Assembly (NCBI GenBank): GCA_015068235.1
Contig: SVKY01000001.1
Coordinates: forward strand, 5,660-69,659
Source of the DNA: Oscillospiraceae bacterium
GTDB taxonomy: Bacteria > Bacillota > Clostridia > Oscillospirales > Oscillospiraceae
Direction: 5' to 3'
DNA: 64,000 bases
Shown: positions 3,811 through 64,000 of the stretch, one piece after another
Layout of the letters: each line of letters opens with the position of its first letter
Position numbering within the stretch: the first letter of the stretch is position 1
Notes under the pieces: model-generated
Told to the model about the DNA's origin: nothing
The model's input: the letters and a program-made list of their open reading frames with translations, nothing else
Database searches by the model: none
Program-made: the position numbers and the translations under genes

Positions 3811-4513
3811 ATGAAAAGAGGAGAATTACAATACCTGTGATAATCGGTTGGTGCAGTAAATAAATCTCTAACGAGTGACGTCCGATGAAGCTGAAAAAGC
3901 AAATCACGGGCAACTGCACCGACACACGAGGAAACAGTGTATTCTTATTCCTGTATAAGGATTTGCCGATGGATGCGCCAAGCAGGAAGGAGCCAAGACC
4001 GGGGAAAATCGGAAAGAAGTCCGCACCCGTAAAGATCCTGCCTGAGCGCAACCCCAAGGGGAAGAGAAAATCAACATCAACGGTAAAGGTCATGAACCAG
4101 CGACCGATAGAAATGATTATGATCCCAATGAGCGCCAAAAGCCAAGACGGAAGCCTTTTGAACAGAGGATAGACGAGCATGCAAACTCCGAGCAGATGCA
4201 AAATGCCGAACCAAATGCGCACATTTCCCATCTGCAGCACATAGTCCATGAATACGGTAACGAGCGTGACGAGCATGCCTGCTGCATAGACGATCAGCCC
4301 ACGTTTCACACATTTTGAGCCAAGTGTGACACAGATTCCGGAAATCAAAACAAACAAAAGATGTCCGTATTGCTGCACAACCAGGAACCATTGCGGAATG
4401 TGAAGCGTAAGATCGGTAAACATCAAAAGATCATAGATCAAATGCACGAAGATCATCCCAATGATACATACGCCTCTCAGCGCATCAAGTTCCCAAATGC
4501 GTTGCTTTTTCAT
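3809..4513 (-). CDS. DUF1624 / heparan-alpha-glucosaminide N-acetyltransferase-like polytopic membrane acyltransferase
   Basis: MKKQRIWELDALRGVCIIGMIFVHLIYDL followed by multiple hydrophobic segments. I place the start at the internal ATG 4511-4513, which forms an ATGA overlap with the upstream stop. The ORF-track start at 4636 lies inside the upstream gene. Confidence 0.65.
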   Translation of the reverse strand: MKKQRIWELDALRGVCIIGMIFVHLIYDLLMFTDLTLHIPQWFLVVQQYGHLLFVLISGICVTLGSKCVKRGLIVYAAGMLVTLVTVFMDYVLQMGNVRIWFGILHLLGVCMLVYPLFKRLPSWLLALIGIIIISIGRWFMTFTVDVDFLFPLGLRSGRIFTGADFFPIFPGLGSFLLGASIGKSLYRNKNTLFPRVSVQLPVICFFSFIGRHSLEIYLLHQPIITGIVILLFS

Positions 4514-6216: not shown

Positions 6217-6372
6217 TTTGTGCCTCCAAGTGTTCATTGTCAGCATTATAACAAATTCTTCCTCAAAAATAAATGGTCATTTTTTAACATCTGTTATTTT
6301 TTTATTTTCCTCTTTATTTCTGCGCAAAAATGTAATAAAATATAGAAGAAGAAATATTACATAGGAGATATT

Positions 6373-30423: not shown

Positions 30424-30846
30424 ATGAAACACAACAAGTTCAAAAGAATTTCGACAATCCTTCTGTGTTTGGCAGCAATTACGGCTATGCTGCTCACAGG
30501 CTGCGTCGATGAAGTCGCCTTGACAGAGGCTGCCACGTTGAGCAATCAGCTTGGCGAAGGTGCAACTGCTTTTACGCTGTGCGTGATCGGCACAGACGGA
30601 AAAGAACAGCAATTCGAGATCCGTACAGACGAAACCACTGTTGGTGACGCTCTGACCAAGGTCGGAATGATCGAAGGAGAGCAAAGCGATTACGGCTTGT
30701 ATATCAAGACCGTGAACGGTGAGACCTTGGATTATGACACCGATGGTAAATATTGGGCGTTTTATATTGGCGAAGAATACGCTATGACGGGTGTGGACTC
30801 GACCGAGATCGTCGAAGGGCAAACCTACACACTCAAGGCAGAATAA
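30424..30846 (+). CDS. DUF4430 (transcobalamin-like) lipoprotein
   Basis: Lipobox LLTGC, and a C-terminus YWAFYIGEEYAMTGVDSTEIVEGQTYTLKAE typical of DUF4430. It sits directly behind the B12 riboswitch. Confidence 0.7.
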   Translation: MKHNKFKRISTILLCLAAITAMLLTGCVDEVALTEAATLSNQLGEGATAFTLCVIGTDGKEQQFEIRTDETTVGDALTKVGMIEGEQSDYGLYIKTVNGETLDYDTDGKYWAFYIGEEYAMTGVDSTEIVEGQTYTLKAE

Positions 30847-30947: not shown

Positions 30948-31334
30948 ATGCGCAGAAGAGGGAAGAGGGGAAGCCGTAATATTATCACGCAGCTTTTGGT
31001 CGCAATGCCACTGCTGACATTTTTGCTTGCGTTTGTATGTGCGAAAATGATCGTCAGCGAAATCCTACGGGAAGAGAGCATTATGCCGTGTGTTTACACG
31101 ATCGTTGGATTCACTTCATTTTTAGCATGCTTATATTGTGCAATACGAATGCCGCAGAAGAAAGCTCTGTGGGGCATCGCTACTGCAGGTGTCTATGCCG
31201 CGATGCTGCTACTTGGCAATCTACTGTTTTTCGGAGTAGGCTACGGTCAGATATTACCGATCATCTTGACCGTATTGGGTGCAGGATTCGTTGCAAGTAT
31301 GCTCGGTGCAATGAAGCGCCGTAAATATGCCTAA
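30948..31334 (+). CDS. Small four-TM membrane protein (TIGR04086-like guess)
   Basis: The hydrophobicity pattern only. Confidence 0.4.
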   Translation: MRRRGKRGSRNIITQLLVAMPLLTFLLAFVCAKMIVSEILREESIMPCVYTIVGFTSFLACLYCAIRMPQKKALWGIATAGVYAAMLLLGNLLFFGVGYGQILPIILTVLGAGFVASMLGAMKRRKYA

Positions 31335-43915: not shown

Positions 43916-46885
43916 TTATGCAATTGCTCTGTACAGGAACGTTACGATCTGACCACGGGTGCAGCTTGCATTCGGGGCAAACTTTCCACCGCCGACACCC
44001 TGTGTGACATCATTTTCTACCGCCCAAAGGACCGCCTTGAAGTAGTAGTCACTCGTCTTGACATCGGAGAACGGATTGTTCGTGCTTGCAGGAGCAGGTT
44101 CGCCTTGACTTCTCCACAAGAACGTTGCAACCTGACCACGAGTGCAGGTGGCATTTGGTCCGAAGCTCGTTGCGGACAAACCTGTTGTGATGCCGTTTTC
44201 CACTGCCCAAAGAACTGCCTTGTAGTAGTATTCTCCTGCCTTAACGTCCTTGAAGTTATTCTTCGTAGAGGTTGGCTCGGGACTGCCGCAGGCTCTCCAC
44301 AGGAAGGTCACGATCTGACCACGGGTGCACGGCGCATTCGGTGCAAAGCTCGTTGCGCTCATGCCGTTGGTGATGTTCTTTCCAACCGCCCACAAAACGG
44401 GAGTTGCAAAATAATCGCTTTCCTTCACGTCCGTGAACGGATTTTCCGTCGGGGTTTCTGGCTCGTTGGGCTGGTCCGTCGGTTCAGAAGGCTCTTCACT
44501 TGGTTCGGAAGGTTCTTCACTGGGGTAGGAAGGCGCCTCACTCGGCTCTGTGGATTCCTCGCTTGGCTCGGACGGCTCCTCGCTCGGCTCGGTTGTCTCC
44601 TCACTCGGCTCAGAGGGTTCCTCGCTCGGTTCGGAGGGTTCCTCACTCGGTTCGGAGGGTTCCTCACTCGGTTCAGTCGGTTCCTCGCTCGGCTCGGTCG
44701 GTTCTTCCTCAGATTTCGAGTAGTTAAAGTGAATTAATTTATTAATTAAACTATCTGTTAAAGCGACGTTGTCAAATCCAACTGCAATTTCATGCCAAGC
44801 TTCTTCAGAGCCGCTGTAATAGATTTCCAGACTGTTCGATCCTGTCTTTGAAAACGCAGATTCGCCAATAATAGAAACAGTTTCGGGAATGATTAAATAT
44901 CTAAGGTCAAAACAGTTTGCGAATGCACTATCGCCAATGATGATCACGCCGTCCGGAATCTCATAGCTGCTGGAATAGATGTTCGCACCGTCCGGAAGCT
45001 CACACTTACCGTAATAATTCTCCGGACATTGGATCAATTTCGTTTTTTCTTTGTTAAACAGGACACCATTCGCATCAGAACTATAATACTGATTTGCTTC
45101 ATCAACCCAAATCTCATTTAAGCTGCCGCAGTTATAGAACGCTTTCTCACCAATACTCGTCACGTTTTTAGGAATGGTTATGCTCGTCAAGCTTCTGCAC
45201 CAGTAGAATGCCGATTCTCCGATGCTTTTTACACTCTCGGGAATGTTTACACTTTTCAAGCTATAACAATGGGTGAACACGCTGTCACCAATGCATGTCA
45301 CGCCGTCAGCAATCGTAACACTCGTCAGTTTTTCGCTGTCAGAGAATGCTCTGTCAGCAATCGTCAACGTATTACTTCTGACAGTATAGTCTCCTGTAAC
45401 ACTATTACGTGCTTCAATTAGATGTCTACCGATGTACAAAACATCAATTTCCCAATTACTTTCTTCGTTATAGTATGCAGTGCTTCTAAACGCACCGTCT
45501 CCAATACTTGTCACGTTATCAGGAAGCGTTATATTTGAAAGCGCTGAGCAACTCCAAAACGCACCGTCTCCAATACTTTTCACGCTATCGGGAATTATTA
45601 TGCTCGTCAAGTTGACACATGACGAAAATGCATAGTCAGAAATTATCAATGTGTTGCTTCGGATTGTGTACCCATCGGCGATGGTCTCTTTTGCCTCAAT
45701 TAAATACTTGCCGATATATAAAACATCGTTTTCCCAATTACTTTCTTCGTTATAATAAGCAGTATTAGAAAAAACACGACCGTTCATGCTTATTACACTA
45801 TCTGGAAGAGTTACGTTTGTCAAGCTGGTGCAGTTTGCAAACGCAGAACTACCAATACTCGTTACGCCATCAGGGATAGTCACGCTCGTCAAATGACTGC
45901 AACTATAGAATGCACTATCACCGATGCTCGTCACGCTGTTGGGAATGGTATATGCTCCGGAATATGTAACAGGGCACTTTATCAACTCCGTTTTTTCCTT
46001 GTTAAACAAGACACCACTTGCATCAGAGCTGTAATATTGGTTCGCCTCATCTACCAAAAAACCAGCTAAACTGTCGCAGAAAGAAAATGCATTATCGCCA
46101 ATGAATGCTACGCTCTCTGAAATTGTTACACTCGCTAAACTGCTACAGTCGGAGAATGCTTGATCACCAATTCTCATCACGCCGTTGGGAAACGTCACAC
46201 TTGTCAGACCGGTGCAAGAAAGGAATGCCGTACTTTCAATACTTATCACACTATTAGGAATTGTTACATCCGTCAGGTCGTAGCAGTATGAAAAACTGCT
46301 CTTACCAATGTTTGTCACGCTATCGGGAATCGTTATATTCGTTAGATTGCTGCAACTATGAAAACATCTGTCGCTGATTTTCGTCACACTATTGGGAATC
46401 GTTATGCTCGTTAGACTGTAGCAGTTTTGAAAAGCACCCTGACCAAAAATCGTTACGCTGTCGGGAATCATTACGCTTGTTAGACTGCTGCAGAAAGAAA
46501 ATGCCTGCATTCCAATGGTCGTGACACTATCGGAAATCGTCACACTCGTCAGGCTGGAGCAGTCAGAGAACGCATCATTACCGATGCGCGTTACGCTGTC
46601 GGGAATCGTCACGCTCGTCAGGCTGTCGCAGCCATAGAACGCACTATTGCCGATGTCCGTGACGGCGACACCGTCGATTTCAGCTGGGATATCGGCGCTG
46701 GTTACGGTATCGTCGCAATCGGTGATGGTACCGGTTGCTTTGTCGAAATAGATATTGCCGCCCTCGACGGGGTAAACAATATCCGTTTCGGAATAGGCGC
46801 TTACTTGCGTCAGTGGGAACATGGATAGCAGCATTGCCATGCAAAGCAGCATTGCTATCAGTTTTTTACATCGTTTTGTTTTCAT
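43916..46885 (-). CDS. Cell-surface protein with a signal peptide, many BspA-type leucine-rich repeats, an (E/P/S/T)-rich linker and three C-terminal SLH domains
   Basis: MKTKRCKKLIAMLLCMAMLLSMFPLTQVSA. Roughly 23-aa units of the form SVTxIGxxAFxxCxxLTSVTIPD. Three copies of F-DVK-x-DYY...AVLWAVENGIT-G...F-PN-x-CTRGQ-VTFLWR. Confidence 0.85.
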   Translation of the reverse strand: MKTKRCKKLIAMLLCMAMLLSMFPLTQVSAYSETDIVYPVEGGNIYFDKATGTITDCDDTVTSADIPAEIDGVAVTDIGNSAFYGCDSLTSVTIPDSVTRIGNDAFSDCSSLTSVTISDSVTTIGMQAFSFCSSLTSVMIPDSVTIFGQGAFQNCYSLTSITIPNSVTKISDRCFHSCSNLTNITIPDSVTNIGKSSFSYCYDLTDVTIPNSVISIESTAFLSCTGLTSVTFPNGVMRIGDQAFSDCSSLASVTISESVAFIGDNAFSFCDSLAGFLVDEANQYYSSDASGVLFNKEKTELIKCPVTYSGAYTIPNSVTSIGDSAFYSCSHLTSVTIPDGVTSIGSSAFANCTSLTNVTLPDSVISMNGRVFSNTAYYNEESNWENDVLYIGKYLIEAKETIADGYTIRSNTLIISDYAFSSCVNLTSIIIPDSVKSIGDGAFWSCSALSNITLPDNVTSIGDGAFRSTAYYNEESNWEIDVLYIGRHLIEARNSVTGDYTVRSNTLTIADRAFSDSEKLTSVTIADGVTCIGDSVFTHCYSLKSVNIPESVKSIGESAFYWCRSLTSITIPKNVTSIGEKAFYNCGSLNEIWVDEANQYYSSDANGVLFNKEKTKLIQCPENYYGKCELPDGANIYSSSYEIPDGVIIIGDSAFANCFDLRYLIIPETVSIIGESAFSKTGSNSLEIYYSGSEEAWHEIAVGFDNVALTDSLINKLIHFNYSKSEEEPTEPSEEPTEPSEEPSEPSEEPSEPSEEPSEPSEETTEPSEEPSEPSEESTEPSEAPSYPSEEPSEPSEEPSEPTDQPNEPETPTENPFTDVKESDYFATPVLWAVGKNITNGMSATSFAPNAPCTRGQIVTFLWRACGSPEPTSTKNNFKDVKAGEYYYKAVLWAVENGITTGLSATSFGPNATCTRGQVATFLWRSQGEPAPASTNNPFSDVKTSDYYFKAVLWAVENDVTQGVGGGKFAPNASCTRGQIVTFLYRAIA
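44479..44710 (-). repeat. About eleven in-frame 21-nt repeats encoding EEPSEPS/EEPTEPS
   Basis: GAGGAACCCTCCGAACCGAGT-like units seen directly in the DNA. Confidence 0.8.
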
Positions 46886-52754: not shown

Positions 52755-55262
52755 TTATATCGTTGATTTTGCGGTGTCGATGCCGTCCCCTTGGAGCTTC
52801 AGCCGTTCGACCGCTTCTTCGCGCATTTTGTATTTCAAAATTTTTCCTGCCGCATTCATCGGGAAAGAATCGACAAAGCAGATATATTTCGGTACCTTGT
52901 GACGTGCCATACTCGCCTTAATAAAATCCGTCATTTCCTGTTCAGAAACCGAGCCGTGCTCTTTGAGGATGATGCACGCCATGATCTCCTCACCGTATTT
53001 TTTATCCGGCACACCGATGACTTGAACATCTCTGACCTTCGGATGTGTATAGATAAATTCCTCGATTTCTTTGGGATAAATGTTTTCACCGCCACGGATG
53101 ATCATGTCCTTGAGTCTGCCTGTAATGCGATAATTTCCATCCTGATCTCTGCACGCCAAATCGCCGGAATGCAGCCAGCCTTCGCTGTCCACCGTGTCAC
53201 GAGTTGCATCGGGCATCTTGTAATAGCCCTTCATCGTGTTGTACCCGCGAGAGCAGAATTCGCCGTTGACACCATCAGGAACTTCTTCGCCTGTCTCGGG
53301 ATCGATGATCTTGCATTGAATATGTGGGAACGCATAACCGACCGTATCGCATCGCAAATCGATTGGATCATCCCAGGAGGACATCGTGCTGCCCGGTGCA
53401 GATTCCGTCTGACCGTAAACGCTGACGATCCCTCGCATATTCATCTCGTCTTTCTGCGCCGCTCTGCGCATCAAATCAGGCGGACAGCCGGCACCAGCCA
53501 TAATGCCTGTACGCATATAGGAAAAGTCGGTTTTTCTATAATCCGGATGGTTAAACATTGCAATGAACATCGTCGGCACGCCGTGGAAGCAGGTAATATG
53601 CTCCTGATTGATGCACGCAAGCGAGGATTTTGCCGAAAAATACGGCAACGGACACAGCGTTGCACCGTGGGTCATAGCAGCTGTCATTGCAAGCACCATG
53701 CCGAAACAGTGGAACATCGGTACCTGGATCATCATGCGATCGGCAGTGGACAGATCCATACGGTCACCGATACATTTTCCATCATTGACAACATTGTAGT
53801 GTGTCAACATAACACCTTTGGGAAAGCCTGTTGTGCCCGATGTATACTGCATATTGCAAACATCGTTGGCTCTGACATTCGCTGCCATGCGATGGACTTC
53901 TTCAATCGGCGTTAAGCTTGCTCGTTCCATCGCTTCATCAAATGTCAAACAGCCGTTTTGGCGGAAGCCAACCGTAATTACATTCCGCAAAAATGGCAGA
54001 CGTTTGCAATGCAAGCTCTTTCCCACTTTCGTGTTCTCAATTTCAGGACAAAGGGTATTTATGATCTCTTTGTAATTAGAATCCAAGCATGATTCAATCA
54101 TCACGAGAGTGTGCGTGTCGGACTGTCTGAGCAGATATTCCGCTTCATGGATCTTGTAAGCCGTATTGACCGTCACCAAGATCGCACCGATCTTCGTTGC
54201 CGCCCAAAATGTAATATACCACGCAGGCACATTTGTTGCCCATATTGCGACCTTACTGCCTGCACGTACACCCATGGAGATCAATGCTCTTGCGAAATTA
54301 TCAACATCTTCTCTGAATTCTTCGTATGTTCGTGTATAGTCTAAGGTCGTATACTTAAACGCATACTGATCCGGGAATTCCTCAACCACACGGTCCAACA
54401 GCTGTGGGAATGTCAGATCAATCAGTTCATCTTTTTTCCACAGGAACTGACCTGAGTGATCGTGGTTGAAATAAAGAGACTTTTTCATGCTTCGGGGCGA
54501 GTCAAAGCGGTTCATATAATTGACAAAATACGGAAAAATAATGTCACGCTCCTGCAGATCCTCCATCCATTCGGGCTTCCATTCCAACGAAATAAAGCCA
54601 TCGTAGTTGATCGAGGACAGCGCACGCATCATATCGGCAACGGGAAGTGTTCCCTCTCCGATCAGATTATAAGTATCCTTATTATCCGAATCACGCAGAT
54701 GCACATGGCGCACATAGGCACCTAAATTCTTGATCGTTGTGTCTGCGCTCTCGCCCATATCCCGATAAGGATGATGCATATCCCAAAGTGCACCGAGATG
54801 ATCGGACGCAAATTCATCCATCACATTTCGAAGCCTTGCCGTATCTGCAAAAATGCCACTCGTTTTGATCAGCAATGTAACGCCGAGCTCCTGTGCATTG
54901 TCCAGTAGCTTTGCAATCCGTTCACGCACAAGCACTTCATTCTCCGTCAGTGCACAGGCGACGACATATTCCACCTTCATCTGTCGTGCGATGTTCATCA
55001 AATCATAAAGCATTTCAATCTTTTCGCCTTCATCTGACAAATCGCACGACGTGTCAAAGCATGGAATTGCCAGCTTTTTCTCTCTAAGCTGACGTGCAGT
55101 CACTGCCAACTGATACTTCTCAAAAGCGCCGCCACGCTCTGTCATGGCGCTTTTATGCAGATTATAGACCTCAATTCCGTGAAAACGCATGTCGATTGCC
55201 GCATCTATCTGCGCTTGCCACGGCAAATCCAGCCAACCTCTTGTGGAAAAGGAGAGCTTCAT
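52755..55262 (-). CDS. Fusion protein: xylose-isomerase-like TIM barrel (about 280 aa) plus AMP-dependent acyl-CoA synthetase (about 550 aa)
   Basis: N-terminus MKLSFSTRGWLDLPWQAQIDAAIDMRFHGIEVYN...HLRDSD. The C-terminal part has YTSGTTGFPKGVMLTH, YGQTES, LHSGDLA...GRLKDMIIRGGENIYP and AAGKILK. ATGA overlap with the upstream gene. Confidence 0.8.
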   Translation of the reverse strand: MKLSFSTRGWLDLPWQAQIDAAIDMRFHGIEVYNLHKSAMTERGGAFEKYQLAVTARQLREKKLAIPCFDTSCDLSDEGEKIEMLYDLMNIARQMKVEYVVACALTENEVLVRERIAKLLDNAQELGVTLLIKTSGIFADTARLRNVMDEFASDHLGALWDMHHPYRDMGESADTTIKNLGAYVRHVHLRDSDNKDTYNLIGEGTLPVADMMRALSSINYDGFISLEWKPEWMEDLQERDIIFPYFVNYMNRFDSPRSMKKSLYFNHDHSGQFLWKKDELIDLTFPQLLDRVVEEFPDQYAFKYTTLDYTRTYEEFREDVDNFARALISMGVRAGSKVAIWATNVPAWYITFWAATKIGAILVTVNTAYKIHEAEYLLRQSDTHTLVMIESCLDSNYKEIINTLCPEIENTKVGKSLHCKRLPFLRNVITVGFRQNGCLTFDEAMERASLTPIEEVHRMAANVRANDVCNMQYTSGTTGFPKGVMLTHYNVVNDGKCIGDRMDLSTADRMMIQVPMFHCFGMVLAMTAAMTHGATLCPLPYFSAKSSLACINQEHITCFHGVPTMFIAMFNHPDYRKTDFSYMRTGIMAGAGCPPDLMRRAAQKDEMNMRGIVSVYGQTESAPGSTMSSWDDPIDLRCDTVGYAFPHIQCKIIDPETGEEVPDGVNGEFCSRGYNTMKGYYKMPDATRDTVDSEGWLHSGDLACRDQDGNYRITGRLKDMIIRGGENIYPKEIEEFIYTHPKVRDVQVIGVPDKKYGEEIMACIILKEHGSVSEQEMTDFIKASMARHKVPKYICFVDSFPMNAAGKILKYKMREEAVERLKLQGDGIDTAKSTI

Positions 55263-56662
55263 ACCTCCGCCTCCTCGTATACGATTTTATTCAATGCGCT
55301 CAAATAAGCTCGGATACTCGAACCGACGATATCGGTTGAAATACCACAGCCTGAATAGAGCTTTCCTTCCGAGCGCAGCTTGACCACCGTCTGACCCATT
55401 GCCTCGGTACCCTCGGTGACAGATTGAATTTGGAAATCGTCGAGTTCATAATGTCTGCCCACGATCTGCTCAATTGCCAAAAAAGCCGCATCAATTGGAC
55501 CATCACCAATGCAAACGCGCTCTAAATTAGCATCCTGTCGTTTGAGCTTCATATGTGCAGTTGCTGAGATCGTGTTGCCTGCGGTGATGACATAATTGTC
55601 AAGAACATATGTCGGCGGCACCTGCATCGCAGCCGATGCCACAATGGCGTCAAGCTCTTTTGCGCTGACCTTTTCCTTCTTCTCGGCAATTGACTTAAAT
55701 GCCTCATAAACAGCCGCACTGTCCTCTTCGGAAAGATCATAGCCCAAATGAACGACCGCCTGCGCAACCGTTGAAACATCGTCATGCACTGTTAAATAAT
55801 CGCTCTCGTCACCTTCTCGAACACCACTTTCAAACGGCGAGGTATCGCTTTTTTGAATCGTGCACATTCGTTCGATCTGCTTGCAAATTCTTCGCATCTG
55901 CGTGGTTTGGATCGTGCTTCGCAGCGCAAAAGCGTCCTCCTTTGCAGCAATCACACGGGCAATATTTTCAACGCTTGCCGTGTTGCGAGGGCAAACCGCA
56001 GCCTTGATTTCATCGACTCCACACGAAAGTGAAGCAACCACACAGGCATTTGCCATGCTGAGTGTATCATTGCAGCGTACACCAACATGAATTTCTTTCA
56101 ATTCAGGCAGTGCATCATAGACAGATTGGACAAATGCCTTGAATTCATCAGGCAGCATCGTTCCTGCAGCATCACAAAGTGTGACGCTCTGCGCGCCTGC
56201 ATCCATTGCGGTCTTGAGCGCACGGATCAAAAAAGTTGAGTCGCTACGTGTAGCATCATCGGCAATAAATTCAACATCATCGCAGACCTCACGGCAATTT
56301 TTGACCGTTTCTTCGATCGAAGCAAGCATCGCCTCAGGCTTCTTGTGGAACAGATATTCCATCTGCACTGCACTGACAGAAGCTCTTACCTGCAAACGAG
56401 GATGTTTTGCTTCCTTTAACGCCTGTATGCTCATTGCAACGCTTTGGGCATTTAATTCCACAGGTACGGCAACAATGCTCTGCTTAACGGCAAGTGCGAT
56501 CGATTTGATCAGCAAGGTATCGATCTTCGTCCGCTTGATCCCATCCAATTCGATCACGCTCACACCAAGCTTATCTAAAAGCTTGGCAAGCTCGATCTTT
56601 TCCTTAAAACTCAGACAATCGCCCTGCTGCATTGTAACATCACTGATTTTGATCGACTTCAT
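55259..56662 (-). CDS. 2-isopropylmalate-synthase-like (HMGL/DRE-TIM plus LeuA dimer/regulatory domain) protein with substituted catalytic motifs
   Basis: ISDVTMQQGDC occupies the place of DTTLRDGEQ, and GVRCNDTLSMANA occupies the place of HCHNDLGLAVAN. The C-terminal LeuA-allosteric-like domain is well preserved (GDGPIDAAFLAIEQIVG...VTEGTEAMGQTVVKL). Confidence 0.65.
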   Translation of the reverse strand: MKSIKISDVTMQQGDCLSFKEKIELAKLLDKLGVSVIELDGIKRTKIDTLLIKSIALAVKQSIVAVPVELNAQSVAMSIQALKEAKHPRLQVRASVSAVQMEYLFHKKPEAMLASIEETVKNCREVCDDVEFIADDATRSDSTFLIRALKTAMDAGAQSVTLCDAAGTMLPDEFKAFVQSVYDALPELKEIHVGVRCNDTLSMANACVVASLSCGVDEIKAAVCPRNTASVENIARVIAAKEDAFALRSTIQTTQMRRICKQIERMCTIQKSDTSPFESGVREGDESDYLTVHDDVSTVAQAVVHLGYDLSEEDSAAVYEAFKSIAEKKEKVSAKELDAIVASAAMQVPPTYVLDNYVITAGNTISATAHMKLKRQDANLERVCIGDGPIDAAFLAIEQIVGRHYELDDFQIQSVTEGTEAMGQTVVKLRSEGKLYSGCGISTDIVGSSIRAYLSALNKIVYEEAEV

Positions 56663-56677
56663 AATTGTTCTCCTAAC

Positions 56678-56932
56678 AAAAAAATCCCTGAAGCTCACGC
56701 TTCAGGGACGAATTTCAAAATTCGCGGTACCACCCTGCTTATCCCCGGAGGGATCACTCTCAGGCTCAAACAAGCCTTCTGCCGATAACGGGGCAACCGT
56801 GCTTCACTACATTCTCGCAAAGCCGACTCGGGAGGGAGAGCGTCAAATCCACGTTTATCGGCTCGCAGCGACCGCCGACTCTCTGAAAACGCAAACAGAT
56901 TCAACTTAGCTCCGTCAACATCTTTTGCTGTT
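56678..56932 (-). promoter_or_regulatory. T-box leader 1, inferred specifier CUC (Leu), with terminator
   Basis: On the minus strand: K-turn TTGACGGAG...CTCCCGAG, CAGAGAG, the T-box AGCAGGGTGGTACCGCGAA (plus coordinates 56721-56739), the terminator TCCCTGAAGC-GTGA-GCTTCAGGGA followed by TTTTTTT, then the RBS. CUC lies at 56836-56838. Confidence 0.85.
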
Positions 56933-56938
56933 AAAAGC

Positions 56939-57004
56939 ATTAAATCACAAAAACATGAAATTGTCAAGAAAAATATTGACAATCGCTTTTCAGTGTGATA
57001 AAGT
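56939..57004. promoter_or_regulatory. Back-to-back divergent sigma-A promoters for T-box leaders 1 and 2
   Basis: Minus strand: TTGACA (56962-56967), 17-nt spacer, TTTAAT (56939-56944). Plus strand: TTGACA (56976-56981), 17-nt spacer, TAAAGT (56999-57004). Confidence 0.55.
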
Positions 57005-57010
57005 AAATGC

Positions 57011-57270
57011 AATAAAGCAAAAGCGTTGACGAAGACGGTCGAATTTTAGTGCTTTCAGAGAGCCGATGTTTGGTGTAAATCGGCAGCATTTGATTCAGTA
57101 CCCATCCCTTCCGAGCCGGAGACCCAAAGATCACACCCAGTAGGCTCTCCCGTATATCTGCGTTAAGGATTAGAGCTTGTTTGAGCTCGAAGAGTGCGGT
57201 TTTTGCCGAAATTGAGTGGTACCGCGGGCGAAATGTATGCTCGTCTCAAGAGAGATCTTGAGACGTTTTT
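57011..57270 (+). promoter_or_regulatory. T-box leader 2, inferred specifier AUC (Ile), with terminator
   Basis: GCGTTGACGAAG...CTTCCGAGC K-turn, CAGAGAG, the distal TGGTGTAAA, the T-box ATTGAGTGGTACCGCGGGC (57209-57227), and the terminator CGTCTCAAG...CTTGAGACG followed by TTTTTTT. AUC lies at 57114-57116. Confidence 0.85.
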
Positions 57271-57296
57271 TTATTTTCTTCAAGGAGGAATCATCG

Positions 57297-59555
57297 ATGT
57301 CAAGCACAACACAATTAATGGAAATTGCCCTTCGTATTCGCGAAATGCGACAAATCGAAGGCTATTCGATCGAAGAAATGGCGGAAAGAACAGCAATTTC
57401 GGCAGAGCTTTATCGCTCCTATGAAACAGGAACCGTTGATCTTCCCTTTTCATTCATTCATAAATGTGCCCTATCCTTCGGAATTGAGATTTCGGAGCTT
57501 TTAGAAGGACATAGTGCTCACCTTTCCTCCTATGCTGTCACTCGTAAAGGTATGGGTAAGCAAACCGCCAAAGAAGAAGGTATCTCGATCGTCAATTTGG
57601 CACCCCGCTTCCGTTCGAAGATCGCCGAACCTTATTGGGTCACCTATGAATATAACAAGGAACAGGAGCAGCGTCCCATTCAGCTTGCAACGCACAGCGG
57701 ACAGGAATTTGATCTGGTTCTGCGTGGTCGCTTGAAGGTTCAAATCGGTGATCATATCGAATATCTTGACGAGGGCGACAGTATTTATTACAACTCCTCG
57801 ATTCCGCACGGCATGGTTGCTGTGGACGGTCGCGATTGTCTCTTCTGCGCCGTGGTCCTTCCCGGAGAAGAAGTTGAGGAACAAGAGATTCGTCGCAGCT
57901 TGATCAGCGCAAAGCGCAGTGAACCGTATATTTGTCAAAAATTCATTGAGACAACGGAAAATTCCGACGGCGCACTTCAAACAATCGCGTTTAAGCAGGA
58001 AGATAGCTTTAACTTTGCCTTTGATATCGTCGATGAGATCGCCAAGAAATACCCCAACAAGCGTGCAATGCTGCATTTGGACAAGCATCAAAACGAACGT
58101 GATCTTACCTTTGAGGATATGCGCAAGGGTTCTTCCAGAGCGGCGAACTATTTCAAAGCTCTTGGCGTTAAGCGTGGCGACCGTGTGATGCTGGTACTCA
58201 AGCGCCACTATCAATTCTGGTATGCGATTTTGGGTCTGCACAAGCTCGGTGCGATCGCCATTCCTGCAACCAATCAGCTTTTAGAGCACGATTTCAGCTA
58301 TCGTTTTAAGGCGGCAGGCGTCAGTGCAATCCTCTGCACCGCAGACGGTTCTACCGCAGATGCGGTCGATGTAGCTGCCAAAGAATACTCAGATTTGAAA
58401 ACAAAGATCATTGTCGGTGGCAGCCGTGACGGATGGCATGATTTCGATGCAGAATTTGGACTTTACAGCAGCCGTTTTGAGCGCACAGAGGATGCCCCTT
58501 GCGGCAAGGATCCGATGCTGATGTTCTTTACCTCCGGTACAACAGGCTATCCCAAGATCGCAACGCATGATTACCGCTATCCCCTTGCGCATTTTGTCAC
58601 GGCGAAATATTGGCACGGAGTATCTTCAGAAGGTCTGCACTTTACCATCTCAGAAACCGGTTGGGGCAAAGCACTTTGGGGCAAGCTCTACGGTCAGTGG
58701 CTGTGCGAGGGTGCTGTATTTACCTATGACTTTGACCGCTTTGATGCAGCGGAAATTCTACCGATGTTTGCAAAATATGGCATCACGACCTTCTGCGCAC
58801 CGCCTACCATGTATCGCATGATGATCCGACAGGATATTAGCAGCTATGATTTTTCCTCCCTGCAGCATATTACCAGCGCAGGCGAAGCGCTGAATCCTGA
58901 GGTTTACCGTGTGTTTGAAAAGCAGACAGGTCTGCGCATCATGGAGGGCTACGGTCAGACAGAAACAACCCTTTCCATTGGCAATCTCATGGGACATGCG
59001 CCGAGATTTGGCTCAATGGGCAAGGCAATGCCGCACTTTGATGTGCATCTTCTCGATCCCGATGGCAACGAATGCACAACAGGTGTCAGTGGCGAAATTT
59101 GCATCAAGACCAGCAAAAAAATCCCCTGCGGTCTGTTTATGGGCTATTATCGTGATGAAGAACGCACCAACGACGTTTGGCATGACGGCTATTATCATAC
59201 AGGTGATGTCGCCTGGCGAGATGAGGACGGATATTTCTGGTATGTTGGTCGCGTGGACGATGTGATCAAGTCCTCCGGCTATCGCATTGGACCGTTCGAG
59301 ATCGAAAGCGTGATCACAGAGCTTCCCTATGTACTCGAGTGCGGCGTCAGCGCAGCAGCTGACGAGGTGCGTGGTCAGGTTGTTAAGGCAAGCATCGTTT
59401 TGGTCAAGGGCACAGCGGCGACCGAGGAATTGAAAAAAGAGATTCAAAACTATGTCAAATCTCGTACCGCACCTTATAAATATCCTCGTATCGTGGAGTT
59501 CCGTGAGAGCCTGCCCAAGACGATCAGCGGTAAAATTATCCGAAATAAACTTTAA
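57297..59555 (+). CDS. XRE-type HTH plus cupin domain fused to a medium-chain-type acyl-CoA synthetase (paralog A)
   Basis: HTH: LRIREMRQIEGYSIEEMAERTAIS. Cupin: DLVLRGRLKVQIGDHIEYLDEGDSIYYNSSIPHG. ACS: FTSGTTGYPK, YGQTET, YHTGDVAWRDEDGYFWYVGRVDDVIKSSGYRIGPFEIE and PKTISGKIIR. AGGAGG lies upstream of ATG 57297. Confidence 0.85.
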   Translation: MSSTTQLMEIALRIREMRQIEGYSIEEMAERTAISAELYRSYETGTVDLPFSFIHKCALSFGIEISELLEGHSAHLSSYAVTRKGMGKQTAKEEGISIVNLAPRFRSKIAEPYWVTYEYNKEQEQRPIQLATHSGQEFDLVLRGRLKVQIGDHIEYLDEGDSIYYNSSIPHGMVAVDGRDCLFCAVVLPGEEVEEQEIRRSLISAKRSEPYICQKFIETTENSDGALQTIAFKQEDSFNFAFDIVDEIAKKYPNKRAMLHLDKHQNERDLTFEDMRKGSSRAANYFKALGVKRGDRVMLVLKRHYQFWYAILGLHKLGAIAIPATNQLLEHDFSYRFKAAGVSAILCTADGSTADAVDVAAKEYSDLKTKIIVGGSRDGWHDFDAEFGLYSSRFERTEDAPCGKDPMLMFFTSGTTGYPKIATHDYRYPLAHFVTAKYWHGVSSEGLHFTISETGWGKALWGKLYGQWLCEGAVFTYDFDRFDAAEILPMFAKYGITTFCAPPTMYRMMIRQDISSYDFSSLQHITSAGEALNPEVYRVFEKQTGLRIMEGYGQTETTLSIGNLMGHAPRFGSMGKAMPHFDVHLLDPDGNECTTGVSGEICIKTSKKIPCGLFMGYYRDEERTNDVWHDGYYHTGDVAWRDEDGYFWYVGRVDDVIKSSGYRIGPFEIESVITELPYVLECGVSAAADEVRGQVVKASIVLVKGTAATEELKKEIQNYVKSRTAPYKYPRIVEFRESLPKTISGKIIRNKL

Positions 59556-59575
59556 CTCTTTACTTGCAAAAAGTG

Positions 59576-59861
59576 TTGACAAATGAACCTCGACATGATA
59601 TGATTCTATAAAGACAAAGACGGAGAGAGATTTCTGCACAAATCATCTGCAGAGAATTGGCGGTCGGTGCAAGCCATGGTGATGTGGAAGTCTTGTCGCT
59701 CCCGAGTCGGAGAGAAGAAAGCTTACTGGCGATTAGACCTCTCTCGCGTTAGCTGCGTTAACCGCCTATTGAGTGGCATCCGAACGGATGCAATTTGAGT
59801 GGTACCGCGGGTTGTATTTTCAGCTCGTCTCAAAGGATCAATCTTTGAGACGAGCTTTTAC
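59576..59861 (+). promoter_or_regulatory. Promoter plus T-box leader 3, inferred specifier GUC (Val), with terminator
   Basis: TTGACA (59576), 17-nt spacer, TATGAT (59599). Stem I GACGGAG...CTCCCGAGTC, GCAGAGA, GGTGCAAG, and the T-box ATTTGAGTGGTACCGCGGGT (59792-59811). Terminator AGCTCGTCTCAAAG...CTTTGAGACGAGCT, then TTTT. GUC lies at 59695-59697. Confidence 0.85.
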
Positions 59862-59882
59862 TATTCTCATACAGGAGGAGCT

Positions 59883-62174
59883 ATGCAGGAACAAAAACTA
59901 ACAGGTTTGGAATATAAAATTCGGGAGATGGCATCTCGTATCCGCGAATTGCGCGAGATCACTGGCTTGAGCGTTGCTGAAATGGCAAAGCGCACCGGTA
60001 TCACAATTAGCGAATACGAGCTCTGTGAGGCAGGGCAGACCGATCTGAATATCGCATTTCTTTATCGCTGCGCCCTAAGCTTTGGCGTTGACGTGACTGA
60101 CCTGATCGAAGGTCACAGCCCGAAGCTGCGTTCTTATACCCTCACTCGATCGGGGCGTGGTCAAAAGATCGAGCAGGCGCATCGTATGACCTACTATAAC
60201 CTCGCAGCAGACTTCCGTAATCGTGTTGCGTTGCCTTTATATGTTGTCATTCAATATAACCAGGACGCTGAGCACGAGGACATCGAGCTGACCACACATG
60301 ACGGTCAGGAGTGTGACCTTGTGATCAAGGGCAGCATGAAGATTCAAATCGGTGAGCATACCGAGATTCTGCACGAGGGCGACAGCATTTATTATGACAG
60401 CTCCACACCTCACGGCATGATCGCTGTCGGTGGTGAGGATTGCGCCTTCTATGCGATGGTTTTGAATCCTTCAGACGATGTCGGCTTAACGCCGAAAGCT
60501 GAGAAGCTTCCGACGCCGTCAGCAACGGAAAAAGACGAAGAAAGACGCATCTATCACGATTTTATCATACCTACGGAAAACGTCTCCGGCGGCATTGAAA
60601 AAATCGCTTTTCAAAATGAAGATCGATTTAATTTTGCTTTTGATGTTGTCGATGCTTTGGCAGAACGTAAGCCTGAAAAGCTTGCAATGCTGCACATTTC
60701 CGAAAATGGAACCGAGCGCCGATTTACCTTCTTGGATGTCAAGAAGGAATCTGCCAGAGCCGCAAACTATTTCAAATCCTTGGGCATTCGCCGTGGCGAT
60801 CGAGTCATGCTCGTGCTCAAGCGGCATTATCAATTTTGGTTTGCACTTTTGGGCTTGCACAAGCTTGGCGCTGTTGCGATCCCTGCAACGAATCAGCTCC
60901 AGGCACACGATTTTACATATCGTTTCAATGCAGCAGATGTCCGTGCAATTCTTTGCACAGCAGACGGAGCTACTGCAGATGAAGTTGCGAGCGCCGCATC
61001 GAAGTGTCCGCAGGTCAAGCACCTGATCATGGTAAATGGTCAAAAAGAAGGCTGGCATGACTTTAATGAAGAATATGCCATGTTCAGTAGCCACTTCCAT
61101 CGAAATGAAGACACACCGTGCGGAAACGATCCAATGCTGATGTTCTTCACATCAGGCACATCGGGCTATCCGAAGCTGGCAGCACACAATTACAAATATC
61201 CCTTGGGTCATTTTATTACTGCAAAATATTGGCACCGAGTCAATCCCGATGGTCTGCATTTGACCATATCCGACACAGGCTGGGCAAAGGCTCTTTGGGG
61301 CAAGCTCTACGGTCAGTGGCTGTGCGAAGCAGCGATCTTTGTCTATGACTTTGACCGCTTCGATGCAGAAAAAATCCTTCCGTTGTTTGCCAAGCATCGT
61401 ATCACAACCTTCTGCGCACCTCCGACGATGTACCGCATGCTGATCAAGGGTGATTTGAGCAAATATGATCTGAGCTCGATCGAGCATGCCTCCATCGCAG
61501 GCGAAGCGCTCAATCCCGAGGTTTTCCGACAGTTCCAGAAGGCAACTGGGCTTCAAATCATGGAGGGCTTCGGTCAATCCGAAAGCACATTGATCATCGG
61601 CAACCTCATTGGCGGCAAGCACAAGATCGGTTCGATGGGCAAGCCCGTCCCCCTTTATGATGTACACCTGCTCAGCGCTGACGGCTCCCCTGCTGCACCC
61701 GGTGAGACCGGAGAGATCTGTATCAACATTGCAAACGAGCTTCCTTGTGGTCTAAGCTATGCTTACGAAGGCAGCCCTGATGTCACCGCCAAAACATGGC
61801 GTGACGGCTTCTATCACACAGGCGACCTCGCTTGGAAGGACGAAGACGGCTTCTTCTGGTATGTCGGACGTGCCGATGATGTGATCAAGTCCTCGGGCTA
61901 TCGCATTGGACCGTTCGAAATTGAAAATGTTATCATGGAGCTTCCCTATGTCTTGGAATGCGGCGTTTCTGCTGCGCCCGATGAAGTGCGTGGGCAGATT
62001 GTCAAGGCAAGCATCGTGCTTGTCAAGGGCACGCAAGCATCTGATGAGCTGAAAAAAGAAATTCAGAACTACGTCAAATCTCGTACAGCGCCTTATAAAT
62101 ATCCCCGAATCGTTGAATTCAGAGAAAGCCTTCCCAAAACGACCAGCGGAAAGATCATCCGCAAGCAGCTATGA
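59883..62174 (+). CDS. XRE-type HTH plus cupin domain fused to a medium-chain-type acyl-CoA synthetase (paralog B)
   Basis: Same architecture and motifs as 57297-59555, collinear along the whole length. AGGAGGAG lies upstream of ATG 59883. Confidence 0.85.
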   Translation: MQEQKLTGLEYKIREMASRIRELREITGLSVAEMAKRTGITISEYELCEAGQTDLNIAFLYRCALSFGVDVTDLIEGHSPKLRSYTLTRSGRGQKIEQAHRMTYYNLAADFRNRVALPLYVVIQYNQDAEHEDIELTTHDGQECDLVIKGSMKIQIGEHTEILHEGDSIYYDSSTPHGMIAVGGEDCAFYAMVLNPSDDVGLTPKAEKLPTPSATEKDEERRIYHDFIIPTENVSGGIEKIAFQNEDRFNFAFDVVDALAERKPEKLAMLHISENGTERRFTFLDVKKESARAANYFKSLGIRRGDRVMLVLKRHYQFWFALLGLHKLGAVAIPATNQLQAHDFTYRFNAADVRAILCTADGATADEVASAASKCPQVKHLIMVNGQKEGWHDFNEEYAMFSSHFHRNEDTPCGNDPMLMFFTSGTSGYPKLAAHNYKYPLGHFITAKYWHRVNPDGLHLTISDTGWAKALWGKLYGQWLCEAAIFVYDFDRFDAEKILPLFAKHRITTFCAPPTMYRMLIKGDLSKYDLSSIEHASIAGEALNPEVFRQFQKATGLQIMEGFGQSESTLIIGNLIGGKHKIGSMGKPVPLYDVHLLSADGSPAAPGETGEICINIANELPCGLSYAYEGSPDVTAKTWRDGFYHTGDLAWKDEDGFFWYVGRADDVIKSSGYRIGPFEIENVIMELPYVLECGVSAAPDEVRGQIVKASIVLVKGTQASDELKKEIQNYVKSRTAPYKYPRIVEFRESLPKTTSGKIIRKQL

Positions 62175-62857
62175 TACGCCGTTTGACCCTCTTTGCAGGG
62201 CACTATGGAAGCGGAAAGACCAATATTGCGGTAAATTATGCTGCATATTTGCGAAAGCAAGGCTTCGCTGTGACGATTGCAGATTTGGACATCGTTAATC
62301 CTTATTTCAGAACAAAGGACAGCGAAAAGCTGCTTAATTCTCTTGGAATTGATTTGATCTGTTCCCCTTTTGCCAACAGCAACTTAGATGTTCCTGCCAT
62401 GCCGGCAGAGGTTTACAGTCTAATCGACAGCCGAACGACGCATGGCGTATTGGATATCGGCGGCGATGATCGTGGTGCGTTGGCACTTGGCAGATACGCT
62501 CCGATGATCAAAGAAGAGAATGATTATGAGATGCTTTTTGTGATCAACCGTTCTCGCCCACTGACTCGCTCTGTGGAAGAGACGCTTCATGTCATGCGTG
62601 AGATCGAAACAGCATGCTCACTTCCCTTCACCGCCGTTGTCAATAACACAAATTTGGGGCGCCATACCACAAAGGAGGACATCCTTGCATCATTGGATTA
62701 TGCAAAAGGCGTGTGCAAAGCAAGCGGTCTTCCGCTTAAAATGACAACGATTCACCACCCGTTATATTCTGAATTGCAATCACATATGAACGACCTGTTC
62801 CCCATACATTTACAGGAACAATACTACGAACTTAGAACGGAGGCCACACATGGCTAA
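62171..62857 (+). CDS. SIMIBI-class P-loop NTPase (MinD/CooC/Mrp-like), function unknown
   Basis: Deviant Walker A FAGHYGSGKTNIAVNYA and LDIGGDD. ATGA overlap with the upstream synthetase, and 8-nt overlap with the downstream ferredoxin. Confidence 0.6.
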   Translation: MIRRLTLFAGHYGSGKTNIAVNYAAYLRKQGFAVTIADLDIVNPYFRTKDSEKLLNSLGIDLICSPFANSNLDVPAMPAEVYSLIDSRTTHGVLDIGGDDRGALALGRYAPMIKEENDYEMLFVINRSRPLTRSVEETLHVMREIETACSLPFTAVVNNTNLGRHTTKEDILASLDYAKGVCKASGLPLKMTTIHHPLYSELQSHMNDLFPIHLQEQYYELRTEATHG

Positions 62858-63056
62858 ACTGACATTCAAAGAAGAATTGTGCAAAGGCTGCGGTCTTTGC
62901 GTCAATGCCTGTCCGAAGGGGCTGCTTGCACTTTCGAGAACAAGGCTGAATCAAAAGGGGCATTCCCCCGTCGAATTAACAAAGCCCGAAGATTGTATCG
63001 GGTGTGCATTCTGCGCAACCATGTGTCCTGATTGCGTGATCACGGTAGAAAGGTAG
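62850..63056 (+). CDS. 2x[4Fe-4S] ferredoxin, delta-subunit type of 2-oxoacid:ferredoxin oxidoreductases
   Basis: CKGCGLCVNACP and CIGCAFCATMCP. 68 aa, immediately upstream of the alpha subunit. Confidence 0.8.
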   Translation: MAKLTFKEELCKGCGLCVNACPKGLLALSRTRLNQKGHSPVELTKPEDCIGCAFCATMCPDCVITVER

Positions 63057-63062
63057 GCAATT

Positions 63063-64000
63063 ATGGAAAAAGTATTGATGAAAGGCAACGAAGCCATTGC
63101 GGAAGCTGCGATTTTAGCAGGCTGCCGTCACTATTTTGGTTATCCGATCACGCCACAGACCGAGGTTGCCGCTTATATGGCAAAGAGAATGCCAAAAATC
63201 GGCGGCGTATTTCTCCAAGCCGAGAGCGAAATTGCAGCGATCAACATGGTCTACGGTGTTGCCGCTACAGGCAAGCGTGCGATGACCTCATCCTCGAGTC
63301 CCGGCATTGCACTCAAATGCGAAGGTATTTCCTACTTGGCAGGTGCTGATTTGCCTGCTTTGATCGTCAACGTACAGCGAGGCGGTCCCGGCTTGGGCGG
63401 TATTCAGCCGTCGCAGTCGGACTATTTCCTCTGCACCAGAGGTCCCGGACACGGTGACTTCCATGTTTTGGTGCTCGCACCGTCAAGCGTACAAGAAATG
63501 GCTGATTTGACACTCAAGGGCTTCGAGCTTGCTGAAAAATACCGCATGCCGGCAATGCTGCTTGCTGATGGCACAATGGGTCAGATGATGGAGCCTGTTG
63601 TCTTGCCGGAAAAGCTCGAAGCTGCTCCTGAAGCACCCGAATGGGCAACCACAGGCACGCAGGGCAAGCGTAAGCACAACATCGCAAATTCCCTCTATCT
63701 CTCCCCTGCTGAGCTGGAACAGCTGAATTTGGAGCGTTTCCGCCGCTATGCGGAGATCGAAGAAAATGAGTGCATGTGGGAAGAATTTATGATGGACGAT
63801 GCGGAATATTGTGTCGTTTCCTGCGGCATTACCGCTCGTGTTTCCAGAAATGCGATTTTGGAGGCACGTGCAAAAGGGATCAAGGTCGGTATGATCCGCC
63901 CGATCACCCTTTGGCCCTTCCCCAAAAAGCCTTTACTCGCCGCAGCAGACCTTGTCAAATCCTTCCTTGTAGTCGAGCTCAGCATGGGTCAAATGCGTGA
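63063..64000 (+). CDS. 2-oxoacid:ferredoxin oxidoreductase alpha subunit (VorB/KorA type), 3-prime end beyond the window
   Basis: Not in the ORF track because it is open-ended. My translation is MEKVLMKGNEAIAEAAILAGCRHYFGYPITPQTEVAAYMAKRMPKIGGVFLQAESEIAAINMVYGVAATGKRAMTSSSSPGIALK...VQRGGPGLGGIQPSQSDYF. Confidence 0.8.
   Translation, partial: MEKVLMKGNEAIAEAAILAGCRHYFGYPITPQTEVAAYMAKRMPKIGGVFLQAESEIAAINMVYGVAATGKRAMTSSSSPGIALKCEGISYLAGADLPALIVNVQRGGPGLGGIQPSQSDYFLCTRGPGHGDFHVLVLAPSSVQEMADLTLKGFELAEKYRMPAMLLADGTMGQMMEPVVLPEKLEAAPEAPEWATTGTQGKRKHNIANSLYLSPAELEQLNLERFRRYAEIEENECMWEEFMMDDAEYCVVSCGITARVSRNAILEARAKGIKVGMIRPITLWPFPKKPLLAAADLVKSFLVVELSMGQMR

Follow-up and report, generated by a model that had tools for sequence, protein, structure and literature searches.

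At the right-hand end of the window analysed here (the whole stretch of 64,000 nt from Oscillospiraceae bacterium GCA_015068235.1, contig SVKY01000001.1, positions 5,660-69,659, forward strand), three T-box leaders precede three gene clusters, each of which encodes an AMP-forming acyl-CoA synthetase. The third cluster goes on to encode a putative 2-oxoisovalerate:ferredoxin oxidoreductase (VOR), of the 2-oxoacid:ferredoxin oxidoreductase (OFOR) type, and a branched-chain aminotransferase (BCAT), and extends past the window edge; we read the genes beyond that edge from the public contig segment L001 (window coordinate = L001 + 52170). The locus has the makings of a tRNA-controlled route from branched short-chain acids to the branched-chain amino acids (BCAAs) Leu, Ile and Val. 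Its features, in window positions unless prefixed by L001, are the following:

52755-55262, minus strand: fusion of a xylose-isomerase-like TIM barrel and an AMP-forming acyl-CoA synthetase, 835 aa (Pfam AP_endonuc_2, AMP-binding, AMP-binding_C)
55259-56662, minus strand: predicted pseudo-isopropylmalate synthase (pseudo-IPMS), 467 aa (Pfam HMGL-like and LeuA_dimer)
56676-56927, minus strand: T-box leader with predicted Leu specifier (CUC); RF00230 match 56927-56701, 106.8 bits, E-value 1.3e-22; terminator 56709-56684 with a U-tract
56939-57004, both strands: divergent mirror-image promoters of the Leu and Ile leaders; -35 TTGACA at 56967-56962 (minus) and 56976-56981 (plus), each with a TGn-extended -10
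57017-57272, plus strand: T-box leader with predicted Ile specifier (AUC); RF00230 match 57017-57251, 99.0 bits; terminator 57242-57265 with a U-tract
57297-59555, plus strand: helix-turn-helix (HTH)-cupin-acyl-CoA synthetase, Ile type, 752 aa (Pfam HTH_19, Cupin_2, AMP-binding, AMP-binding_C)
59576-59604, plus strand: promoter of the Val leader; TTGACA, 17-nt spacer and TATGAT with TG, 11/12 matches
59608-59865, plus strand: T-box leader with predicted Val specifier (GUC); RF00230 match 59608-59835, 95.1 bits; terminator 59822-59856
59883-62174, plus strand: HTH-cupin-acyl-CoA synthetase, Val type, 763 aa, paralog of the Ile type (Pfam and NCBIfam scans)
62171-62857, plus strand: SIMIBI-class P-loop NTPase, 228 aa (weak Pfam CbiA/ParA match)
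62850-63056, plus strand: two-cluster ferredoxin, OFOR delta subunit, 68 aa (Pfam Fer4 families; NCBIfam OorD/KorD-like below cut-off)
63063-64000, plus strand, cut at the window end: VorB, alpha subunit of VOR (NF005507, 488.7 bits in the window)
L001 13235-14020: nitrilase-family hydrolase (CN_hydrolase), between VorC and BCAT (YafV-type amidohydrolase model, 122 bits against a cut-off of 249)
L001 14037-15119, just right of the window: BCAT (NF009897, 455.9 against 307; TIGR01123, 374.6 against 250)
L001 15131-15154: operon-end terminator after BCAT

The domain scans agree with the genes that an earlier reading of the window (the original prediction) had placed behind the three leaders, i.e. 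synthetases, P-loop protein, ferredoxin and VorB, and what it expected to the right of the window, namely OFOR beta and gamma subunits and an aminotransferase, is present there as VorA, VorC and BCAT.

The T-boxes were tested with cmscan against the Rfam model RF00230 (gathering score 93, model positions 1-219). Across the whole window, four elements reached their Rfam gathering score: three T-boxes and an unrelated cobalamin riboswitch. All three T-box matches were full-length, and the claim of three leaders was borne out by these matches and their terminators. Directly 3' of each leader lies a terminator hairpin with a T-tract, the 5' arm of which is also the 3' arm of the antiterminator, so that terminator and antiterminator are mutually exclusive in all three. 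The T-box bulge reads UGGU in 3/3 leaders, as predicted; the other predicted motifs stood only in part, the distal loop of the Leu leader being GCUG, not GGUG, and the box of the Ile and Val leaders being AGUGGUACCGCG, not GGUGGUACCGCG. When the three Stem I regions were folded by minimum free energy, z-scores were 0.25-0.38 and the K-turn was mispaired; as such folding is uninformative for T-boxes, we used the covariance model and comparative data instead. In a sample of related loci, orthologous Leu leaders scored 93-116 bits and Ile and Val leaders often 84-93 bits, and since many leaders lie just under the Rfam gathering score, the regulon may have been overlooked for that reason. Full-length Ile/Val T-boxes in this sub-threshold range (84-93 bits) are found, for instance, at L009 9680-9921 and 12370-12607, and at L060 9714-9950 and 12307-12532.

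Each leader has its own TTGACA promoter with a TGn-extended -10, and the TTGACAA/TGn -10 pattern also lies 5' of T-boxes at related loci. A 24-nt inverted repeat between the divergent leaders was considered as an operator and dismissed, being merely the two mirrored promoters, and a search upstream of 132 leaders found no HTH operator, the conserved parts being the promoter hexamers and the 5' end of the T-box only. A Shine-Dalgarno sequence and an ATG follow each leader (starts at 56662 on the minus strand, 57297 and 59883), and the public gene calls concur; longer open reading frames with GTG starts extend into the leaders and were rejected as real starts.

In the register of the covariance model, the 3' side of the specifier loop reads CUC-C with helix CUCC in the Leu leader, AUC-C with helix CUUC in the Ile leader and GUC-G with helix CUCC in the Val leader, followed by CGAG. 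The base 3' of the codon is therefore C, C and G, respectively, where A is usual, with a non-purine in two of the three leaders, and because of this unusual base the register was tested by comparison across genomes. For this we used 80 loci from other species-level genomes encoding the fused synthetase, almost all of them rumen or gut metagenome-assembled genomes (MAGs); their T-boxes were parsed via the K-turn and helix pairing, and the register followed the TBDB priority rule, which takes bases 2-4 of the specifier loop, counted from its 3' end (PMC7778990). At these loci, leaders before the first synthetase carry ATC (72/73), those before the second carry GTA (43) or GTC (6), together 49/51, and those before the IPMS-like gene CTC (17) or CTG (9), together 26/29, with A, C, G or T at the position after the codon. 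Codon changes that are only synonymous, next to a base that is free to vary, are the behaviour expected of a specifier, and we regard the predicted specifiers Leu (CUC), Ile (AUC) and Val (GUC), the same codons as originally read, as confirmed by this comparison. AUC and CUC are, moreover, the dominant Ile and Leu specifiers in TBDB (PMC7778990). No tRNA genes were found within the window. The discriminator of bacterial tRNA-Leu, tRNA-Ile and tRNA-Val is A73, with which UGGU pairs.

The arrangement is by no means confined to this genome. The fused synthetase has thousands of homologs, and the species-level genomes encoding it number at least 587, from Oscillospiraceae, Acutalibacteraceae, Ruminococcaceae, Christensenellaceae and their relatives. 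When synteny across related loci was mapped by tblastn, three units recurred: a Leu leader with pseudo-IPMS and TIM-synthetase; an Ile leader with a synthetase; and a Val leader with a synthetase, P-loop protein, ferredoxin, VorBAC, in some cases the CN hydrolase, and BCAT. The relative order and orientation of these units vary among loci. In single-synthetase genomes, one operon behind the Ile leader comprises synthetase, P-loop protein, ferredoxin, VorBAC and BCAT. Of the wiring originally proposed, the part in which each leader has its own synthetase stands, whilst the pairing of the Val signal with VOR is true of this genome but, given the Ile leader of single-synthetase genomes, not a general rule.

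The best NCBIfam match of the Ile- and Val-type synthetases is MbcS (431 and 420 bits, respectively; equivalog cut-off 850), and their synthetase domains match MacsMa of Methanosarcina acetivorans (PDB 3ETC) with an E-value of 4e-186 and about 52% identity. MacsMa prefers 2-methylbutyrate, with a role for Trp259 in an alternate pocket (PMC10455477); this Trp is conserved in both of our synthetases, where KYW is aligned. MbcS of Staphylococcus aureus is active on 2-methylbutyrate and isobutyrate, with very low activity toward isovalerate (PMC10026030), and the poor handling of isovalerate by MacsMa/MbcS types fits the presence of a different synthetase lineage behind the Leu leader. Indeed, the alpha-branched acids that are precursors of Ile and Val would be paired with MacsMa/MbcS-type paralogs, and the beta-branched isovalerate, precursor of Leu, with another lineage.

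Classed by the specifier of the leader immediately 5' of each gene, 70 synthetases were of the Ile type and 37 of the Val type, and the two types separate fully: the nearest neighbour belongs to the same class in 107/107 cases, and the two clusters are the two classes. Eleven positions, at least 90% conserved within each class, distinguish them, nine in the HTH-cupin module and two in the enzyme, where the change from Ile to Val type is from Gly457 to Ala in TGW[G/A]K and from Gly472 to Ala. MacsMa carries Gly at TGW[G/A]K, like the Ile type; this position probably aligns with an acyl-pocket residue of acetyl-CoA synthetase, and the bulkier Ala of the Val type would suit the smaller isobutyrate. 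On these grounds we propose that the Ile-type enzyme may be a 2-methylbutyrate-CoA ligase and the Val-type enzyme an isobutyrate-CoA ligase. The HTH-cupin modules occupy 57297-57900 and 59883-60500 of the window, and a PDB sequence search with this module returned no match.

Behind the Leu leader, the start of the TIM-synthetase gene overlaps the pseudo-IPMS stop by 4 nt, and at almost all loci with the upstream region present a Leu T-box immediately precedes this pair. The first gene had been described as IPMS-like, which holds for its fold and its LeuA_dimer domain but not for its catalytic residues, nor for its scores, which lie below every NCBIfam IPMS cut-off (best 287 bits against 532). 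The barrel model superposes on the Listeria IPMS (3EWB) with a root-mean-square deviation of 1.5 Å over 270 columns, and the LeuA_dimer domain is complete (PF08502, E-value 1.5e-30, profile positions 2-130 of 131); this C-terminal LeuA regulatory domain is the best-conserved part of the subfamily. Compared with the Listeria and Neisseria enzymes (3EWB, 3RMJ), RDGEQ has given way to QQGD with a five-residue deletion and HxH to RCN, such that the substrate Arg and all three metal ligands (Asp/His/His) are gone, and the same loss, with differing replacement residues, is seen in 33/33 orthologs. Because these residues are lost in every ortholog, the protein is, judging by its catalytic positions, a pseudo-enzyme, i.e. 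a catalytically dead LeuA derivative and not an isopropylmalate synthase.

Its partner, the TIM-synthetase, has PRK12583 as its best NCBIfam match (667 bits, the cut-off of 832 not being reached). Positions conserved at 90% or more make up 12% of the fused TIM domain as against 54% of the synthetase part; the barrel has not kept the usual metal motif, and a PDB sequence search with the TIM domain gave the uncharacterised MJ1311 as its sole match. We propose that this fusion could be an isovalerate-CoA ligase.

The Val operon runs in the order HTH-cupin synthetase, P-loop NTPase, ferredoxin, VorB, VorA, VorC, nitrilase-family hydrolase, BCAT and terminator, with no strong terminator inside it. 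Full-length VorB scores 528.3 bits against NF005507 (cut-off 399), and alpha, beta (TPP_enzyme_C), gamma (POR) and delta subunits are encoded together; the beta and gamma subunits match generic OFOR models only, below their cut-offs. Its gene context, BCAT and the T-boxes, suggests that the oxidoreductase may act on branched 2-oxoacids and acyl-CoAs.

The P-loop NTPase is present in 52 loci and adjoins the ferredoxin/VorBAC genes in 52/52. Its motifs are GHYGSGKTN, DLDIVNPYFR, GGDDRGA.ALGR, RPLT and NNsNlg.eT; most orthologs have no Pfam match above threshold, and both NCBI and JGI name the protein hypothetical. Both ends of the gene overlap its neighbours, which suggests translational coupling, and the structural model (pLDDT 82) has a generic SIMIBI fold like that of SRP/FtsY, ATPase-type HypB and MipZ (TM-scores 0.5-0.59). 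We considered whether it might be a NifH-like, ATP-driven electron pump for low-potential carboxylation, and rejected this on account of the generic fold and the lack of a conserved Cys; our guess would be a maturation or assembly factor for the oxidoreductase. One homolog (P0325) lies on a 1.94-Mb contig that is probably a near-complete genome. As for the nitrilase-family hydrolase, the synteny map places its gene only in the closest relatives. Glutamine transaminase and omega-amidase form a pair known from methionine salvage, which this hydrolase-aminotransferase neighbourhood recalls, and by analogy the hydrolase may be an omega-amidase that pulls glutamine-dependent transamination.

From the T-boxes, their specifiers, the gene content and its conservation across many species, we infer substrates, a direction of flux, a mode of induction and roles for the accessory domains. 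We consider it quite likely that the locus is a salvage regulon which makes Leu, Ile and Val from isovalerate, 2-methylbutyrate and isobutyrate and is switched on by its three T-boxes. The original prediction of a route from branched-chain fatty acids to BCAAs under tRNA control is thereby supported, every one of its testable sequence-level predictions having held. In such a regulon, the anticodon of uncharged tRNA-Leu, tRNA-Ile or tRNA-Val would pair with the matching Stem I specifier (CUC, AUC or GUC), and the free NCCA end of the tRNA with the UGGU bulge, stabilising the antiterminator and allowing RNA polymerase to read through; with charged tRNA, the overlapping terminator would form. The Ile leader would release the MacsMa/MbcS-type AMP-forming acyl-CoA synthetase, the Val leader its paralog along with the four-subunit VOR, the P-loop NTPase, the nitrilase-family hydrolase and BCAT, and the Leu leader both the catalytically dead LeuA derivative and the synthetase of another type that is joined to a degenerate TIM barrel. 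Acid, ATP and CoA would then yield acyl-CoA; acyl-CoA, CO2 and reduced ferredoxin would yield the 2-oxoacid; and transamination of the latter would give the amino acid. T-boxes activate genes when the cognate tRNA is uncharged, and AMP-forming ligases run toward acyl-CoA; this chemistry and this on-when-uncharged logic point to synthesis, not breakdown.

Several considerations weigh against such a regulon. The synthetases miss the MbcS equivalog cut-off (431 against 850 bits), MbcS being their nearest characterised type only; the Leu-type synthetase is without a characterised close relative; and the substrate range of an OFOR is not readable from sequence. In this genome, VOR and BCAT also sit behind the Val leader only. 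If they are gated by Val alone, induction by Ile or Leu shortage only would need either basal read-through or another oxidoreductase; there is no terminator between the Ile-type synthetase gene and the Val leader, so Ile-induced transcripts would reach the Val checkpoint. Finally, the acyl-CoAs could also feed branched-chain lipid synthesis. Taken further, this last point becomes an explanation of its own, in which the main task of the synthetases is to provide branched acyl-CoA primers for the branched-chain fatty acids of the membrane, the T-boxes triggering the scavenging of external acids, for lipids and not for amino acids, when BCAAs, the usual source of primers, are low. Their best NCBIfam match, MbcS, has precisely such a documented role in supplying lipid primers (PMC10026030), and the Ile and Leu operons hold a synthetase with neither oxidoreductase nor aminotransferase. 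However, the Val-type synthetase shares an operon with VOR and BCAT, single-synthetase genomes bring synthetase, VOR and BCAT together under the Ile leader, and FabH and lipid genes are absent from the clusters; we find lipid priming as the main role unlikely.

Could the cluster be catabolic instead, with BCAT and VOR oxidising BCAAs to acyl-CoAs, as anaerobes that ferment amino acids do, and an accessory role for the synthetases? The VOR and BCAT reactions are reversible and have fermentative roles in other Clostridia and in archaea. Yet breakdown would call for the reverse of induction by uncharged tRNA, AMP-forming synthetases cost two ATP equivalents and conserve no energy, and the ADP-forming synthetases, or phosphotransacylase and kinase, of fermenters are absent from the cluster, all of which makes breakdown very improbable. 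We likewise find it scarcely credible that the Leu operon encodes a working isopropylmalate synthase, with Leu made by the ordinary route from 2-oxoisovalerate: the Pfam HMGL-like and LeuA_dimer domains speak for this, as does the JGI name of one ortholog, 2-isopropylmalate synthase, but the replaced substrate Arg and Asp/His/His ligands, in the window protein as in 33/33 orthologs, and a score far under every IPMS cut-off speak against it, and leuB, leuC and leuD are absent from the operon and the window.

Within the salvage regulon, a more tentative suggestion concerns the modules carried by, or paired with, the three synthetases. Although we would put it as a possibility rather than an expectation, these might be end-product sensors, constituting a second, protein-level tier of control above the T-boxes. 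For the Leu branch, we hypothesise that neither the pseudo-IPMS nor the fused TIM barrel is catalytic and that both are partners of the synthetase, most plausibly serving to sense leucine and adjust isovalerate activation: the dead LeuA, left with only its presumed leucine-binding regulatory domain, would render this step leucine-sensitive. For the Ile and Val branches, the ligand of the class-specific HTH-cupin module would be the cognate amino acid or acid, and the module would either gate the enzyme or, like BirA, repress transcription. If true, a relic of the canonical pathway would now serve its replacement as a feedback sensor.

Elsewhere in the window, we found no ilv or leu genes; the remainder holds housekeeping and sporulation genes instead. 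An AMP-binding acyl-CoA synthetase-like gene (4510-6246, minus strand, 568 aa) adjoins an HGSNAT/acyltransferase-3 membrane protein and is without a T-box. The cobalamin riboswitch (RF00174, 30165-30372, plus strand, 45.8 bits against 31.5) lies directly upstream of two small genes, DUF4430 (about 30424-30846) and DUF3792 (about 30948-31334), which probably serve together in B12 binding or uptake. A Firmicute that forms spores and carries an S-layer is indicated by the spoIIIA operon, at about 12.9-18.2 kb of the window, together with large surface proteins bearing LRR_5 repeats and SLH anchors (window 43916-46885, minus strand, and L001 17857-20109). The flanks of related loci contain a tetrahydrofolate riboswitch (L073 3223-3320, plus strand, 71 bits) and a Gut-1 RNA (L009 283-355, plus strand, 51.5 bits), both unrelated to the regulon.

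How does this regulon sit among known systems? The leaders share with the transcriptional T-boxes of Firmicutes, which control ilv-leu operons, aminoacyl-tRNA synthetases and BCAA transporters, the same Stem I with its K-turn, AGAGA, specifier and distal loops, the same UGGU bulge, the same competing antiterminator and terminator, the preferred AUC and CUC specifiers, and the on-when-uncharged logic. They differ in their targets, here AMP-forming acyl-CoA synthetases and a ferredoxin-dependent 2-oxoacid oxidoreductase, and in the 84-93 bits, under the gathering score, of many Ile and Val leaders. With respect to the classical reductive carboxylation route, the proposed chemistry is the same, as is the rumen and gut habitat of the MAGs. 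This route to Val, Ile and Leu was reportedly worked out in rumen bacteria and methanogens by Allison, Bryant and Robinson in the 1960s-80s, and the VOR of Methanobacterium is anabolic. Whereas that knowledge is biochemical, the present loci offer genes, operons and one sensor per amino acid, in Oscillospirales and Christensenellales. Compared with MacsMa and MbcS, the Ile- and Val-type synthetases have an additional N-terminal HTH-cupin module and a proposed role in amino-acid supply under T-box control. LeuA and CimA, the Claisen condensing enzymes of the DRE-TIM metallolyases with a C-terminal allosteric domain, have the same fold and a complete LeuA_dimer domain in common with the pseudo-IPMS subfamily, which, in contrast, is without metal ligands and substrate Arg and is paired, and translationally coupled, with an acyl-CoA synthetase, not with LeuBCD.

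Both the pathway and T-boxes are thus known; what would be new, going by the sequences, is T-box control of this salvage route. The original prediction had taken T-box control of acyl-CoA synthetases to be undescribed, and our literature search met with no such report: in full texts, we found no link of T-boxes to acyl-CoA synthetases, VOR or branched short-chain acids, although older reviews lay outside this search and an earlier mention is possible. Oxidoreductase, ferredoxin and acyl-CoA are not mentioned in the in silico T-box survey of Wels et al., nor are CoA or oxidoreductase targets in the TBDB paper (PMC7778990), and the route goes unmentioned in a large genome-based reconstruction of how gut bacteria make amino acids (PMC9026213). 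As the reconstruction omits it, auxotrophy predictions may wrongly class carriers as dependent on an outside supply of Val, Ile and Leu.

That Clostridia of the rumen and gut use branched short-chain fatty acids, or depend on them, is long established; our literature search turned up no paper that sets out the Firmicutes genes responsible or how their use is decided. The regulon described here puts genes and a control circuit on this nutritional route, known biochemically since the 1960s, with one candidate activating enzyme per acid, each tied to its own tRNA-charging sensor and linked to VOR and BCAT. It would also widen the range of T-box targets from aminoacyl-tRNA synthetases, de novo biosynthesis and transport to fatty-acid salvage. 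Considering that supplements of branched volatile fatty acids are used in ruminant feeding, the genes of this regulon could serve as markers for those bacteria that respond to them.

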